A DNA stretch of 36,911 nucleotides from a virus (taxonomy: Duplodnaviria; Heunggongvirae; Uroviricota; Caudoviricetes): the IMG/VR virus record IMGVR_UViG_2531839667_000007. One strand, given 5' to 3'. Below the pieces are notes generated by a model. It saw nothing but the letters and a program-made list of their open reading frames with translations. It did no database searches and was not told the DNA's origin. The position numbers and the translations under genes are program-made. Positions 2,649 through 7,575 of the stretch are shown one piece after another. Every line of letters begins with the position of its first letter. Position 1 is the stretch's first letter.

Positions 2649-3068
2649 TTATGATGCGTTTTGTGCTTTCTTTTTACGGATTTCTTCGTAGATCATATTG
2701 TAATACTGTTTTTTCTCTTCAAGAGTTTTTAATAAGTTATCCGCTTCACTTTCTGGCAGTTCGTCTAAGAGATCTAAAAAAATACGTTGTCGTGGCGTTA
2801 GAACCCTTGTTTCATAATTGGAGGCTGTGTTCGTTGATGATGAAACGATACCATCCATCCATCCCCGGGGTAACCCAAAGGACTCTTCTATAATCTCCAC
2901 CATATCATCAGCGATCCGTTTTTTTCCTTTTTTCCCCTCTGGGTACAACATTCTTGATACATAAGAAGGCTCGCGACCGATCTTTCTGGCCACGTTAACC
3001 GCTTTACCATCGCATTTCTCATCACGAATTTTGATGAGTTGTTGTCGTCTAAATTCATATTTGTCCAT
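2649..3068 (-). CDS. phage repressor (cI analogue), short HTH protein without LexA-like S24 peptidase domain
   Basis: 139 aa, HTH-like segment GKAVNVARKIGREPSYVSRMLY; divergent from cro-like gene; flanked by repeated operator-like sites. Confidence 0.75.
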   Translation of the reverse strand: MDKYEFRRQQLIKIRDEKCDGKAVNVARKIGREPSYVSRMLYPEGKKGKKRIADDMVEIIEESFGLPRGWMDGIVSSSTNTASNYETRVLTPRQRIFLDLLDELPESEADNLLKTLEEKKQYYNMIYEEIRKKKAQNAS

Positions 3069-3074
3069 AGGTAA

Positions 3075-3144
3075 ATAATAGATGCGATTACCGCAAGGTA
3101 AACAACCTAGGGGTATTGACTTTTGTTTACCTGTGGGTATTCTT
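3075..3144. promoter_or_regulatory. right operator/promoter region: sites ACCTAGGGGTAT (3105-3116) and ACCTGTGGGTAT (3129-3140); candidate PR -35 TTGACT (3116-3121) and -10 ATTCTT (3139-3144); candidate leaderless PRM with -10 TATTAT on minus strand (3075-3080)
   Basis: Operator-like repeats share ACCY-NN-GGGTAT core with the left sites; promoter hexamers read from sequence, not verified. Confidence 0.45.
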
Positions 3145-3168
3145 TACTGTGTTTACTAAGGAGTAGCT

Positions 3169-3450
3169 ATGGAAGAATTAAGAATATTTCTCAATTCTCT
3201 TTCGTCAGATGAACAGCGTATGTTTGCATGTGAGTGTGGTACTAGCATCGGTTATCTAAGAAAGGCATTGAGTAAAGGTCAAATCTTAGGGGCATCGTTA
3301 TGTGTCCTTATTGAGCGAGCCAGTAATGGTGAAGTTACACGTCAGCAACTAAGGCCTTTTGATTGGATGAATATTTGGCCCGAGCTGGAAGATACCAAAA
3401 CGTTAACACAACCACTTACTAGGAGCTTGATTCATGAAAATCAAGCATGA
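3169..3450 (+). CDS. Cro-like early regulator (YdaS-like HTH protein)
   Basis: 93 aa, divergent from repressor, AAGGAG SD 5 nt upstream; resemblance to Rac-prophage YdaS family is from recall. Confidence 0.65.
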   Translation: MEELRIFLNSLSSDEQRMFACECGTSIGYLRKALSKGQILGASLCVLIERASNGEVTRQQLRPFDWMNIWPELEDTKTLTQPLTRSLIHENQA

Positions 3451-3859
3451 ACACATCCGCATGGCGATGAATGCCTGGGCGCGTCCTGATGGCGAAAAAG
3501 TTCCAGCAGCTGGAATAACCCAGGCTTATTTTGAGTTGGGTATGACGTTTCCTGAACTGTATGACGACAGCCATCCGGAAGCCCTGGCTCGCAATACCCA
3601 GAAAATTTTCCGCTGGGTAGAGAAAGACACCCCTGATGCAGTTGAAAAAATTCAGGCGTTGTTACCAGCGATCGAAAAGGCAATGCCACCTTTGCTGGTG
3701 GCCAGAATGCGCAGCCACAGTTCAGCTTATTTTCGGGAGCTGGTGGAGACGCGGGAGCGATTGGTGAGAGACGCTGATGATTTTGTCGCAGTGGCAATCG
3801 CCGGTTTCAATCAGATGAACCGTGGTGGCCCGGCAGGAAATGCTGTGGCAGTACATTGA
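3434..3859 (+). CDS. YdaT-like protein (CII-position regulator of Rac-type prophages)
   Basis: 141 aa starting MKIKHEHI, as recalled for Rac YdaT; overlaps the cro-like gene end; AGGAG SD. Confidence 0.65.
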   Translation: MKIKHEHIRMAMNAWARPDGEKVPAAGITQAYFELGMTFPELYDDSHPEALARNTQKIFRWVEKDTPDAVEKIQALLPAIEKAMPPLLVARMRSHSSAYFRELVETRERLVRDADDFVAVAIAGFNQMNRGGPAGNAVAVH

Positions 3860-3930
3860 CTGACAATAGCCATATCGAATCGCTTCCGGCAACTCGTGAG
3901 TAAAAAGATTCGGTATCAGAAGAGGTGAGT

Positions 3931-5001
3931 ATGGCTAACGCTTGGCTCAGATTATGGCATGACATGCCAAATGACCCTAAGTGGCGAACAATTGCCAGGG
4001 TGTCAGGGCAGCCAATTGCAACAGTGATGGCAGTGTATATCCACCTCCTGGTGAGCGCGTCACGAAATGTCACGCGAGGTCACATTGATGTCACGACAGA
4101 AGATTTGGCAAGTGCGCTCGACGTGACAGAAGAGGTAATTGATTCAATTTTGCAGACGATGCAGGGGCGGGTACTTGATGGTGATTTAATCACTGGATGG
4201 GAAAAACGCCAGGTGCTTAAAGAGGACAACGGCAATATTTCGCAAACCGCAAAATCTCCTGCAGAGCGCAAGAGGGCGCAGCGAGAGAGGGAAAGAAAGC
4301 GGGAACAAAATGGCGATTGTCACGGCGCGTCACGAAATGTCACGCACATGTCACGACGAGTCACGACAGATAAAGATACAGATAAAGATACAGATCAAGA
4401 AGATCAAAACACTATGGTCCATGGCGTAAAAAACGCCACGAACCAGGCAGGGGATGTTCAGACCGTCAATCTTGGTCAGCCAGCAGGCACGACACCGGAA
4501 GCCGATTCAGCGTATGCGCTGAAAGCCGATTCGGGCGCTGTGCAGCAGGTGATGACCGCAAGGCCGGAGCAATCACACCAACTGCAGCAGCCTGAAGCCG
4601 ATTCCGCCATTCTGCGGGAAGCCGATCGGGTAGTCCCGGAAAACACCGGGCAGTCTGTGGGACGAGTGGATTATCCGGATGTGTTCGAACAGGTCTGGCG
4701 GGAGTACCCGTTGCGTGCCGGAGCAAACCCGAAGAAATCCGCTTTCAGTGCCTGGAAGGCCAGATTACGCGAGGGGGTGCCACCAGAGGCCATGCTGGAT
4801 GGCGTGAGGCGTTACGCAAGATACTTGGCGGCTACCGGGAAAACGGGAACGGAATTTGTTCAGCGAGCGACGACGTTTTTAGGACCGGACCGGAATTTTG
4901 AGAACCCCTGGTTGCTCCCGGTAAGCGGTACGAACAACCAGCGTTGCGTGAATCACATTTCTGAACCAGATACCGAAATTCCACTGGGCTTCAGGGGGTA
5001 A
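3931..5001 (+). CDS. replication initiation protein (lambda O analogue) with internal iterons
   Basis: 356 aa from ATG 3931 (SD AGAAGAGG); position after cro/CII-like genes; contains two clusters of GTCACG direct repeats. Confidence 0.65.
   Translation: MANAWLRLWHDMPNDPKWRTIARVSGQPIATVMAVYIHLLVSASRNVTRGHIDVTTEDLASALDVTEEVIDSILQTMQGRVLDGDLITGWEKRQVLKEDNGNISQTAKSPAERKRAQRERERKREQNGDCHGASRNVTHMSRRVTTDKDTDKDTDQEDQNTMVHGVKNATNQAGDVQTVNLGQPAGTTPEADSAYALKADSGAVQQVMTARPEQSHQLQQPEADSAILREADRVVPENTGQSVGRVDYPDVFEQVWREYPLRAGANPKKSAFSAWKARLREGVPPEAMLDGVRRYARYLAATGKTGTEFVQRATTFLGPDRNFENPWLLPVSGTNNQRCVNHISEPDTEIPLGFRG
4059..4095. repeat. iteron cluster 1: GTCACG/GTCACA at 4059, 4069, 4079, 4090 (about 10-bp phasing)
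   Basis: Direct repeats read from sequence inside the replication gene; encode ASRNVTRGHIDVTT. Confidence 0.55.
4319..4390. repeat. iteron cluster 2: GTCACG at 4319, 4329, 4339, 4350, 4360 followed by AT-rich tandem ACAGATAAAGAT x2 (candidate origin)
   Basis: Direct repeats at helical phasing then AT-rich tandem repeat, as in lambda ori inside O. Confidence 0.55.
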
Positions 5002-5041
5002 GTGTTGATTTCTGGTCATGAGGTAATTTTCAGGAGGACTT

Positions 5042-5464
5042 GTGGCAAAAGTTTTTACACAAGAAGAGCGAGAAAAAATTAAAGGGCAGGTTGTTGAACT
5101 CGTACGCCAGAGTGGGCGTGAGACGTTACGGCAACTGGAAGTCAAGACAGGTGCGACAAGATATCTGATGAGCGTTCTCGCAAGAGAGCTGGTTGCCAGC
5201 GGCGATGTATACAACTCTGGTTACGGGTTGTTCCCGTCTGAACAGGCGCGTAAGGACTGGCAAAACGCCCGCAAAAAACTCTCAAGGGCAAATCTGAAGA
5301 AACCATCTGTGGTTGATCCTGACCTTATCTGGTCATTACCAGACGGAGAAATACGCCGCTACGACAGGCGTCAAAACATAATCTGTAGCGAGTGCCGGAA
5401 GAGCGAAGCTATGCAGCGTGTACTGGCTTTCTATCAGGGTAATTTTCAGAAGGTGCTGTTGTGA
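5042..5464 (+). CDS. hypothetical protein at the lambda P position (140 aa, GTG start)
   Basis: Track ORF; GTG start 4 nt after AGGAGG; not DnaC-like or lambda P-like by eye; C-terminal CSEC motif. Confidence 0.55.
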   Translation: MAKVFTQEEREKIKGQVVELVRQSGRETLRQLEVKTGATRYLMSVLARELVASGDVYNSGYGLFPSEQARKDWQNARKKLSRANLKKPSVVDPDLIWSLPDGEIRRYDRRQNIICSECRKSEAMQRVLAFYQGNFQKVLL

Positions 5465-5569
5465 GCCAAATTAACAATCGGAACTTCGTGAAGAGAAAGC
5501 ATAATCCAAATCTGAATAATTAAGTTCAGCACTGTAAATAAAATTTAATCCTTAACTGGAGGTATATCT

Positions 5570-5683
5570 ATGTCAAATACACAGAAAATTATTAACACTG
5601 AAAAATATAACGAGTGGGTGAAAAATTCTCTGAGCAGATTTTTAAAATTACTGGCGACGAGAATGTGGCAAAAAATGAATTAG
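5570..5683 (+). CDS. small ORF (37 aa, MSNTQKIINTEKYNEWVKNSLSRFLKLLATRMWQKMN)
   Basis: Own translation; ATG 7 nt after GGAGG; AT-rich segment. Confidence 0.3.
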   Translation: MSNTQKIINTEKYNEWVKNSLSRFLKLLATRMWQKMN

Positions 5684-5813
5684 AACCGTGGACACCTGAA
5701 GGAAACGCACCAAATTATTGCTGGTGGGAGGTTGATCCGGTTGATGCTGCAAATGAAGCCATGAGTTACCACAACGATTAATGTCGGGAGGCCGCCCGAA
5801 AGGGCGGTAAGAA

Positions 5814-6032
5814 ATGACTACATTATTCAGAAAAGAATATCCGCAAAAAAGTAGGGCGACAGAATTTTTGTTTCTCATTCTGTTTATCGTATTGATGATA
5901 CCGATATCCCCTCTAATTTTTGTCTGGGCAATCGGGAAAATAATTGAGCCAGTTACTGAATTGTATACCGACGTTGTATGGGCGTCGTTCAACACACTGC
6001 ACAATAAAATTAATCCGTATAAGGAAAACTGA
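5814..6032 (+). CDS. small predicted membrane protein (72 aa)
   Basis: Track ORF; hydrophobic stretch FLFLILFIVLMIPISPLIFVWAIG; SD-like AAGGGCGG lies inside hairpin 5792-5807. Confidence 0.4.
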   Translation: MTTLFRKEYPQKSRATEFLFLILFIVLMIPISPLIFVWAIGKIIEPVTELYTDVVWASFNTLHNKINPYKEN

Positions 6033-6033
6033 T

Positions 6034-6297
6034 ATGGCAACTTTGACAAAAAAAGAACGGGCATGGTTGAACGAATTACAGGAAGTTCTTGATCGCTGTC
6101 CATCACCGAAAAAAATTGGCTTTTACACCATTGGCGATAAAAGCATTTACCTGTATGACCTACGCCGCATGGATGAAATCATGGAGGCTCTTGATAATCG
6201 TTCGTCGATGGATTGGTGTGTTGCTGTTCATGATATGAATGCAGGGTTTGATGAAAAGATTTTGTTCCCCTCATCAGTTGAAAGCACTGCGGGTTAA
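6034..6297 (+). CDS. hypothetical protein (87 aa from MATLTKKERAW)
   Basis: Internal ATG of track ORF 5944..6297, AAGGAAAA SD. Confidence 0.5.
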   Translation: MATLTKKERAWLNELQEVLDRCPSPKKIGFYTIGDKSIYLYDLRRMDEIMEALDNRSSMDWCVAVHDMNAGFDEKILFPSSVESTAG

Positions 6298-6307
6298 GGA
6301 GTAACAC

Positions 6308-6961
6308 ATGACCACTATTACCAAAGAACGTATTGAATTGTTCATTAAAAATCCGCTTGAAAACGGGCTTACCCGTGGTGAACAAATGGAACTGGCACGG
6401 ATTGCGCTGGCATCGCTGGAAGCAGAGCCGGTGGCAAAGATTATAGCTCATTACCCATTAGGAGTTGACGTAGGCAAACAAAAGTTCGTACAGGCCATTG
6501 GAGAGCTTCCTGACTTTGGCGGATATCTATTTGCCGCCCCTCCAGCGCCGATAGTGCCGGAAGAAATGTATTGGCAGGATGCGCCAGTTGAAGGCAGCAG
6601 CAAAGCGGCTGCATACGCTACAGGCTGGAACGATTGCCGCGAAGCCATGCTTCAGTCCGGAAACTTTCGGGAAAATAAAGATTCGTCAACCAATAATTTT
6701 CGGAAAATCCCGGAAGCGTCAACCAGCTCTCCGGTAACTCCGGCTCTTCTGCCTGGTGGTTTCACCATTGAGGATGCGAAGGATTTACATGAAGACCTGG
6801 TGCGCAGCCACATAAGCCAGGCTTTAAGTAGCGAAAAGATGAAAAAGAAAGATCGCGATGCTGATTTGCGTTGGATCCATGGCGTTATAGTTCAGGCAGC
6901 GTGGTTTGTGAAAGCATCACTGGAAGCGTTGCCTGAACTGTCGCAGGAGGTGAATCAATGA
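6308..6961 (+). CDS. hypothetical phage protein (217 aa)
   Basis: Track ORF; ATG after TAAGGAG; family not recognised. Confidence 0.6.
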   Translation: MTTITKERIELFIKNPLENGLTRGEQMELARIALASLEAEPVAKIIAHYPLGVDVGKQKFVQAIGELPDFGGYLFAAPPAPIVPEEMYWQDAPVEGSSKAAAYATGWNDCREAMLQSGNFRENKDSSTNNFRKIPEASTSSPVTPALLPGGFTIEDAKDLHEDLVRSHISQALSSEKMKKKDRDADLRWIHGVIVQAAWFVKASLEALPELSQEVNQ

Positions 6962-7041
6962 CCTGGCCTGAGGCATTCACAACGGTAGGAATTGCGATGG
7001 CGGTGACGCTGGTGGTGTATTCGATTTGCCGCTGGGGATAA
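6958..7041 (+). CDS. small hydrophobic peptide (27 aa, MTWPEAFTTVGIAMAVTLVVYSICRWG)
   Basis: Own translation; ATGA start/stop overlap with upstream gene, CAGGAGG SD at 7 nt. Confidence 0.3.
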   Translation: MTWPEAFTTVGIAMAVTLVVYSICRWG

Positions 7042-7048
7042 AAACGGT

Positions 7049-7076
7049 TTGCGGGAAAAGGAGAGTTAAGTAGAAT
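7049..7076 (+). promoter_or_regulatory. candidate promoter of the hok-like mRNA (-35 TTGCGG 7049-7054, -10 TAGAAT 7071-7076)
   Basis: Hexamers with 16-bp spacer placing the start near 7083, where the 5' element complementary to the mRNA 3' end begins. Confidence 0.35.
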
Positions 7077-7252
7077 TGCTGCGGGTGCTTGAGGCTATCT
7101 GTCTCAGGCATGAACACCAAAAGGCAGATAGAGAAAAGCCCCAGTTAACATTACGCGTCCGGCAAGACGCTTAACATTAATCTGAGGCCATATCTATGCT
7201 CTACACACGTAGGTTAGCCTCTTACGTGCCGAAAGGCAAGGAGAAGCAGGCT

Positions 7253-7408
7253 ATGAAGCAGCAAAAGGCGATGCTTATCGCCCTGATCGTCATCTGTTTA
7301 ACCGTCATTGTGACGGCACTGGTAACGAGGAAAGACCTCTGCGAGGTACGACTCCGAACCGGCCAGACGGAGGTCGCTGTCTTCACAGCTTACGAACCTG
7401 AGGAGTAA
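7253..7408 (+). CDS. hok: Hok/Gef family type I toxin (51 aa)
   Basis: MKQQKAMLIALIVICLTVIVTALVTRKDLCEVRLRTGQTEVAVFTAYEPEE aligns with plasmid R1 Hok along its length; strong SD AAGGCAAGGAGAAG; in-frame upstream ATG at 7196. Confidence 0.8.
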   Translation: MKQQKAMLIALIVICLTVIVTALVTRKDLCEVRLRTGQTEVAVFTAYEPEE

Positions 7409-7478
7409 GAGACCAGGCGAGGGAGAAATCCCTCGCCACCTCTGATGAGTCAGGCATCCTCAACGCACCCGCACTTAA

Positions 7479-7503
7479 CCCGCTTCGGCGGGTTTTGTTT
7501 TTT
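7479..7503 (+). terminator. rho-independent terminator of the hok-like transcript
   Basis: CCCGC-TTCG-GCGGG hairpin followed by TTTTGTTTTTT. Confidence 0.6.
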
Positions 7504-7575
7504 CCTGGCATTCTGGTTTACAATTCGCACGTCAGCCTGAACACCTGACACCTGCTGCGCCAGCAGAGAAAACAG

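Follow-up and report, generated by a model that had tools for sequence, protein, structure and literature searches.

A probable bipartite replication origin, with two arrays of the same iteron, inside the initiator gene of a lambdoid prophage

The DNA analysed here is IMG/VR virus record IMGVR_UViG_2531839667_000007 (Caudoviricetes), and the whole stretch of 36,911 nucleotides is called the window below. Its replication initiator gene carries two separate clusters of short repeats, and we find that this region is probably the replication origin of a lambdoid prophage, situated inside its own initiator gene and bipartite in structure. The second cluster (array 2), together with the AT-rich tract and the palindrome that follow it, looks like a core origin with the layout of ori-lambda, placed in the codons of a disordered linker, and the first cluster (array 1) with an inverted unit (4059-4128), about 260 bp upstream, appears to be a second array of the same site. 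[quoted passage not shown] That proposal appears to hold on comparative evidence, i.e. both clusters are kept in a Pseudomonas phage, their cores switch jointly in other lineages, and array 1 is under selection at the level of DNA.

The units of both arrays are 10-11 bp direct repeats without internal dyad symmetry, built on the core GTCACG. On the plus strand this core starts at 4059, 4069 and 4090 in array 1, with a degenerate GTCACA at 4079, and at 4319, 4329, 4339, 4350 and 4360 in array 2; a single inverted copy is found at 4122-4127, within 12 nt that are 92% complementary to the unit at 4349-4360. The two clusters, with a phasing of about 10 bp, are thus found exactly where they had been described (4059-4095 and 4319-4365), and their first units are 260 bp apart. 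Tandem Repeats Finder reports array 2 as a period-10 array of 5.0 copies (4318-4368), and it also recovers the tandem repeat noticed earlier behind it, ACAGATAAAGAT x2.9 at 4366-4400 with 95% matches. The two strands of the window together hold 34 GTCACG sites, as compared to 17.5 +/- 4.3 in shuffled sequences, none of which reaches 34. Nine of these sites are packed into 307 bp, where the density of the remaining 25 would lead one to expect about 0.2 (Poisson probability of the order of 1e-12, by arithmetic on the site counts), and there is no further GTCACG cluster in the window. The longest string common to arrays 1 and 2 is 21 nt long and identical in both (GCGCGTCACGAAATGTCACGC). The repeated peptide segments of the preliminary description are real as well: ASRNVT occurs at residues 43-48 and 133-138, VTT at 54-56 and 144-146, where identical DNA happens to be translated in one and the same frame. 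In the other parts of the arrays the core is read in the two remaining frames, so that all three frames are used.

A constraint on array 1 is seen at synonymous sites. We compared the codons of array 1 with those of conserved residues outside it in 20 divergent loci of the GTCACG type, and the relative synonymous entropy is 0.20 in the array-1 codons vs 0.84 elsewhere (Mann-Whitney p=2e-6). V47 is encoded by GTC and T48 by ACG in 20 of 20 loci, G50 by GGT in 20 of 20, H51 by CAC in 19 of 19 and S44 by TCA in 19 of 20, and the V65 codon of the inverted copy is GTG in 16 of 16. The third base of R49, which lies between two cores, is free (A 8, C 5, T 6, G 1). Fixed synonymous sites next to a free spacer base mean that selection acts on the DNA and not on the peptide. 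Moreover, a period of 10-11 bp, no multiple of three, together with the use of three reading frames and the synonymous constraint, excludes selection at the peptide level. In a prophage of E. coli O157:H7 and in E. albertii, an in-frame insertion of 21 bp adds two extra units to array 1.

Near-identical genes are present in phages Tritos, Evi, vB_EcoS-689R5 and others, and 2078 of the 5426 complete E. coli genomes have one too; IMG/VR contains more than 524 loci. When one genome per species was scanned, 57 loci were obtained from Gamma-, Beta- and Alphaproteobacteria, Acidobacteria and others, and each was anchored on the DPKW codons. In nearly every locus the commonest 6-mer recurs every 10-11 bp, both in the stretch from +86 to +140 and in that from +300 to +450, and array 2 has 3-7 units in 50 of the 57 relatives; these 50, each with at least three array 2 units, were typed. 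The core of array 1 is the same as that of array 2 in 47 of the 50 typed loci (24 GTCAC, 6 GTAAC and 17 GAACG, the full cores being GTCACG, GTAACG and GAACGC), array 1 is absent from 3 of the 50, and discordant cores were found in 0 of the 50. The inverted copy is found in many of the GTCACG-type loci. Two examples illustrate the pattern. Pseudomonas phage phita81A, whose N-terminal domain is 69.5% identical, has four GTCACG units in the same codons plus the inverted copy, and four linker units followed by AGATAAAGATACAGAAGAAG; in a metagenomic podovirus (48% identity), CGAACGC replaces GTCACG in both arrays and CTAGATAAAGAAGAAGAAG follows.

A neighbour-joining tree was built without the residues encoded by array 1, from 76 columns only. 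In this tree, two GTAAC loci (L103 and L106) are sisters of a GTCAC locus (L105), another GTAAC locus (L113) is the sister of a GAACG locus (L118), and array 1 has been lost independently. As GTAAC loci stand beside both GTCAC and GAACG loci, the tree argues for several joint and independent switches of the two arrays. The core types also differ within one host genus, which argues that the specificity is encoded by the element itself and speaks against binding by a host factor. We also considered a general concerted evolution of the arrays in positions other than the core. Within a locus, the longest string that the two arrays have in common is 12.8 nt long on average, vs 10.7 nt between loci of the same type, and exclusive matches of 17-21 nt are limited to 7 of 46 loci, the window being one of them (21 nt); general concerted evolution was therefore rejected, and exchange between the arrays is occasional.

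The tract behind array 2 is a candidate DNA-unwinding element. It is the least stable 41-bp segment of the gene (free energy, dG, -44.7 vs -58.8 +/- 3.8, i.e. 3.7 standard deviations off) and ranks in the top 0.46% (least stable) of the whole window. In 47 of the 50 loci the last array 2 unit is followed by AGATAA, AGATAC or AGAAGA repeats, which usually start exactly 8 nt after the core start. These repeats have a GC content of 0.35 vs a locus mean of 0.55, with 71% purines on the coding strand, and they lie beside array 2 whatever the iteron type, in hosts whose GC content ranges from 34% to 67%. The 12-bp AT-rich unit is present in 3, 4 or 5 copies in different strains. Two GATC (Dam) sites, 9 bp apart, lie in the tract of the window (4393-4396 and 4402-4405), a pair that suggests possible control by methylation or SeqA, by analogy with oriC.

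The palindrome further downstream is enriched at the same place in relatives (16 of 49 loci at a per-locus p<=0.10), its stems differing in sequence between loci while the complementarity is retained. Shigella phage 75/02 Stx keeps the palindrome with a compensatory change of T/A to A/T. Behind the AT-rich tract, between about a third and a half of the loci have such a palindrome, with a stem of 6-9 bp; it is seen in L001, L093, L096, L113, L118, L122, L131, L137 and others. Read on the minus strand, it resembles a hairpin with a T-rich run behind it and scores terminator-like. A C-rich motif, CCCCCCTTACCCCCC (peptide PPLPP or PPYPP), stands directly after the AT-rich tract in several loci of the GTCACG type (L001, 2950-2990, L090, L094 and L095), and it occurs in Rac ydaU too.

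The spacing of the units gives a hint as to how the two arrays might work together. Over the loci, neighbouring units lie 10 bp apart in 161 cases and 11 bp apart in 36. Between 168 and 350 bp separate array 1 from array 2, and this distance is periodic at 10.1 bp, which is the period within the arrays (R=0.55, 25 distinct values, scan-corrected p=0.007). Such a lattice fits a single assembly that would contact both arrays on the same face of the helix. We envisage that winged-helix monomers of the initiator bind the 10-11-bp units head to tail along one DNA face, and that the common lattice allows one cooperative assembly to bridge or wrap both arrays, like an O-some with an extra arm. The bridged complex would be stabilised and would put stress on the AT-rich tract, which would then open, and the DnaT-like tail of the initiator would recruit the DnaB-DnaC loading machinery of the host, because the phage encodes no loader of its own. 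DnaT is known to act with PriA and PriB in loading DnaB-DnaC (PMC13220808). In the window the initiator is not followed by any gene for a helicase or a helicase loader, nor is there one as far as Q; the replication module at 5042-9831 is without a helicase loader gene.

The initiator is a protein of 356 residues that matches PHROG 3729, 'replication initiation protein', from end to end (E 8.6e-256), and the NCBI name of its family is 'phage replisome organizer'. It consists of a predicted winged-helix domain (residues 1-95), a basic helix (110-126), a disordered linker (127-172) and a C-terminal domain ending in the DnaT-like tail. The linker holds array 2 (residues 130-146), the AT-rich tract (146-160) and the palindrome (162-172). 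An AlphaFold2 model of residues 1-140 (mean confidence score, pLDDT, 78.7) has helices at 4-14, 16-25, 29-45, 56-63 and 67-77, a hairpin at 78-87, the basic helix and then the disordered segment. Array 1 (residues 43-56) falls on the end of helix a1 and on the a1-a2 loop in this model, and the inverted copy (residues 64-66) on the turn of the helix-turn-helix. The medium-confidence model points to a winged helix as the N-terminal domain, and the top Foldseek matches are winged-helix regulators, none of them significant. A profile search for a sequence relative of this domain in the PDB found none. With Pfam nothing reaches the threshold, and Phage_rep_O gives no match even at E<=10. PF09681 (Phage_rep_org_N) scores 15.9 bits, below its cut-off of 23.3, in a match that spans profile positions 1-119 of 121, and one of 47 homologues reaches E 3e-4 with this profile. 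The C-terminal tail is a candidate contact for loading of the host helicase. NCBIfam NF002770 (DnaT) matches residues 333-356 only (E 0.0076), the DnaT chains 6aep, 2ru8 and 9zbt of the PDB match the tail with E 0.15-0.65 (13 of 21 residues are identical to 6aep), and the Pfam DnaT profile is matched by 2 of 47 homologues. The coordinates of all features are given in Table 1.

Table 1. Features of the initiator gene and of the putative origin within it (positions in the window).
Feature	Position	Strand	Remarks
Replication initiator gene, 356 aa	3931..5001	+	phrog_3729 match
Iteron array 1, four direct units, spacing 10, 10, 11 bp	4059..4099	+	encodes aa 43-56
Array 1 units: GTCACGAAAT, GTCACGCGAG, GTCACATTGAT, GTCACGACAG	within 4059..4099	+	
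Inverted iteron copy, TGTCACGTCGAG on minus strand	4117..4128	-	encodes D64-V65-T66
Iteron array 2, five direct units, spacing 10, 10, 11, 10 bp	4319..4369	+	encodes aa 130-146
AT-rich purine-skewed tract, (ACAGATAAAGAT)x2.9 then GATCAAAA	4366..4410	+	GC 0.37
Imperfect palindrome TGGTCCATGGCGT / ACGCCACGAACCA, 5-nt AAAAA loop	4415..4445	.	downstream of AT-rich tract
C-terminal tail NQRCVNHISEPDTEIPLGFRG, DnaT-like	4936..4998	+	NF002770 + PDB DnaT matches

There are several points that weigh against a bipartite origin of this kind. Array 1 is absent from three loci (L117, L134 and L115) that retain array 2, so it is not essential everywhere; L117 has seven array 2 units. Since the lineages without array 1 retain array 2, the tract and the palindrome, these would form the core origin, and array 1 is best described as a frequent auxiliary array that is sometimes lost. 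The loci are not phylogenetically independent, and counting 47 agreements in 50 loci overstates how many of the events were independent. Some of the 10.1-bp periodicity between the arrays is to be expected trivially, as the array edges gain or lose complete units. The winged-helix assignment comes from a medium-confidence model without a significant structural match (best Foldseek E 0.2). Sequence is silent on whether array 1 acts positively, as an enhancer, or negatively, as a control element. Finally, no description of this family's origin turned up in a literature search (replisome organiser, iteron, lambdoid two-cluster origins, oriJ, DnaT and prophage), and it is from sequence that we infer binding, unwinding and replication here.

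Of the alternatives, the one that survives best keeps array 2 and the AT-rich tract as the origin and makes array 1 an element of negative control, acting by titration of the initiator or by handcuffing of origins; in a variant of this reading, array 1 is an operator or roadblock that limits transcription or translation of the initiator's own gene. Extra iteron arrays are known to exert control in iteron replicons, with titration or handcuffing by extra iterons at incA of P1 and at the control sites of iteron plasmids. The 39-mers of chrII are an example of initiator-binding control sites (PMC3401445). Array 1 has the same sites as array 2, is under selection at the DNA level, lies within the coding sequence of the initiator itself and is dispensable in some lineages, as might be expected of such an element. 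We nevertheless consider negative control unlikely, as one 10.1-bp lattice and a short, fairly constant separation fit a single joint complex, and the origin of a phage in its lytic cycle has little obvious need for copy-number control.

It is far less probable that array 1 has no function of its own and arose as a side product when sequence was duplicated or converted between the linker array and the N-domain region, in a loop that tolerates such changes. The long strings common to the arrays (21 nt in the window and 17-21 nt in six other loci) show that exchange or copying takes place, array 1 has been lost in some lineages and the loop accommodates an insertion of 7 residues. However, the synonymous sites of the core are frozen in 20 loci whose synonymous variation is otherwise near saturation, with the spacer position free, and a matching core persists through several independent switches and through expansion by whole units, whereas neutral by-products would decay. 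Just as improbable is the view that the repeats are bound by another protein (a host factor, or a CII/YdaT-like or Cro-like regulator) or are kept by selection for repeated peptides: the region is transcribed together with regulator genes, but the initiator is the only gene common to all repeat-bearing loci, its neighbours differing completely, core types differ within one host genus, DnaA boxes are not enriched, and selection for peptides conflicts with a period that is not a multiple of three, with the use of three frames and with the constraint on synonymous sites. Sequences resembling DnaA boxes (TTWTNCACA, one mismatch) number 71 vs 63 expected, and none is notable in the origin.

Within the bipartite origin reading there is a further, doubtful idea, i.e. 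that the residues encoded by array 1 (the a1-a2 loop, and above all residue 51) help to read the iteron; with similar reservation, the residue at the start of the recognition helix is also a candidate in the lineage of L103, L105 and L106. If this were true, a binding site and part of the reading head of the protein would be encoded by the same nucleotides. A change from GTCACG to GTAACG (His CAC to Asn AAC) would then alter the site and its reader at once, and copying to array 2 would complete the switch of specificity. Two observations hint in this direction. The first is that, outside the iteron-encoded residues, no position of the domain tracks the iteron type across independent switches. 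Specificity residues outside array 1 were sought and rejected, the best columns (residues 100-110) tracking clade and an indel rather than the iteron type. The second is that His51 is present in 23 of 24 proteins of the GTCAC type and also in L115, a metagenome-assembled genome of Noviherbaspirillum that is placed among relatives of the GAACG type. This locus (+60 to +480 from the anchor) has three TGTCACGCCA units (TGTCAC) in array 2 and no array 1, and it is possibly a natural experiment on the specificity determinant.

Origins hidden in initiator genes are textbook knowledge for lambda and SPP1, and it is instructive to compare the window with these systems. In lambda, a palindrome lies to the right, as in the window. 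The origin of lambda and Stx phages is inside the initiator gene, with iterons and then an AT-rich tract in mid-gene (PMC7466680). The window is similar in that its putative origin is located mid-gene in the linker after the DNA-binding domain, iterons preceding the AT-rich tract in the direction of transcription, and in that the number of iterons varies (4 vs 6 in the lambda/Stx relatives, 3-7 in the family of the window). In other respects the two differ. The initiator of the window is not an O homologue, so the name 'O-like' used in the preliminary description suits the function and layout of the gene but not its ancestry (Phage_rep_O does not match and PF09681 stays below threshold). The 19-bp sites of lambda have internal inverted symmetry whereas the units here are direct repeats of 10-11 bp, a second array is present about 260 bp upstream in the code of the DNA-binding domain, and there is no P-like loader gene, the next gene being DUF977/Ren-like.

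The replisome organiser of SPP1, G38P, binds repeats in its own gene 38 (oriL) beside an AT-rich unwinding element; a second, distant region, oriR, is bound as well (PMC5737612, PMC6316719). We find one group of repeats in gene 38 (L145, 5940-5988), followed by an AT-rich tandem repeat (5996-6027). In both systems the repeats lie within the gene of the organiser, beside an unwinding element (a putative one in the window), and there is a second repeat region. The second site of SPP1, however, is intergenic and about 13 kb away, while that of the window is 260 bp away in the same gene, and SPP1 encodes its own loader and helicase. Homology between G38P and the protein of the window was looked for and could not be shown (hhalign probability 0.3%; Pfam 15.9 bits vs the cut-off of 23.3).

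A comparison with the YdaU region of the Rac prophage had been proposed in the preliminary description, and it gave a divided answer: the DNA layout is similar, whereas the proteins have only the C-terminal tail in common. Rac ydaU of E. coli K-12 (L144, 2740-3170) agrees with the window in gene order (repressor, YdaS, YdaT, initiator), in the AT-rich unit (AAAGATACAGATAAAGAT) with a C/G palindrome behind it, and in the DnaT-like tail at the C-terminus. The repeats of ydaU are of the TGTTCAA type, lie in the linker and further upstream, and are followed by AATAAAGATACAGATAAAGATCT and the CCCCCCCTAAATCCCCCCCGGGGG palindrome. On the other hand, its N-terminal domain is unrelated (DUF1376), the repeats differ in sequence and spacing (33, 33 and 12 bp), and a DnaC-like gene, ydaV, follows ydaU. 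Homology of the whole protein to YdaU was rejected, as the BLASTP alignment is confined to the 19 residues at the C-terminal end (E 1e-4) and to a low-complexity part of the linker. The Rac ydaU region may be the unmapped oriJ.

Bipartite or enhancer-assisted origins are known from P4 (ori plus crr) and from B. subtilis and H. pylori, where oriC is split by dnaA. The bipartite oriC of H. pylori is described in PMC3479198. In all three, two separated clusters of sites for one initiator act on a single unwinding element, as is proposed for the window. Their clusters, however, are intergenic and flank a gene or are kilobases apart, whereas the window has both clusters in a single reading frame, with one overlapping the code of the DNA-binding domain.

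Intragenic iteron origins as such are already known, and what appears to be new here is the co-evolving second array that overlaps the code of the DNA-binding domain. The family is very common, with members in O157:H7 prophages, many Proteobacteria and some Acidobacteria, and its origin has been unannotated until now; the present analysis gives a usable origin annotation for these prophages. It also provides a case of overlapping codes, in which a protein-binding array dictates codons, and even amino acids, inside a DNA-binding domain. The relatives form a natural series with at least three iteron specificities that have switched several times, in both arrays together, and this series makes the co-evolution of initiator and origin, and the incompatibility of co-resident prophages, directly testable. 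In addition, there is a hint from the sequence of the DnaT-like tail that a phage initiator may use the restart primosome of the host in place of a loader of its own.

The initiator gene seems to be assembled from parts. Only the C-terminal half, from about position 4523 on, is common to the window and Shigella phage 75/02 Stx; the N-terminal domain of the phage protein is unrelated, its linker repeats are different and a DnaC-like gene adjoins it (L003, 3092-3832). This mosaic indicates that the N-terminal domain and its iterons move together as a module, and that the C-terminal part forms a second module. The same N-terminal domain and iterons are also found in an O157:H7 prophage, next to a 'replication protein P' gene (L141, 2537-2998), and this relative differs in its C-terminal part. 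The different loader neighbours (P, DnaC-like or none) likewise argue that the initiator is a mosaic of exchangeable modules. In two loci, L125 (a Serratia metagenome-assembled genome) and L138 (Pantoea), the N-terminal domain is followed by a different C-terminal part (YYVY...GISxNPWAR), and the linker has palindromic ACTACG/CGTAGT repeats instead of phased direct units, with no array 1. Many database proteins of the family are labelled 'partial': they have 150-240 residues and stop close to the repeats. Breaks in assemblies or gene calls may be frequent at the iterons and the AT-rich region, or in multi-copy genomes.

The surroundings of the initiator gene are those of a lambdoid prophage. 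Upstream there are genes for a DicA/cI-like repressor (on the opposite strand) and for Cro/YdaS-like and CII/YdaT-like proteins, and the order cI, cro, cII, initiator is that of lambdoid early regions; the rest of the window contains RusA, Q and late genes. A promoter scan of 3000-5600 gave promoter-like matches at chance level, with one minus-strand match made by the iterons themselves. A small open reading frame at 7196-7408, between the replication genes and the HNH/RusA/Q block, matches a MokW-like host-killing family of the hok/mok type.

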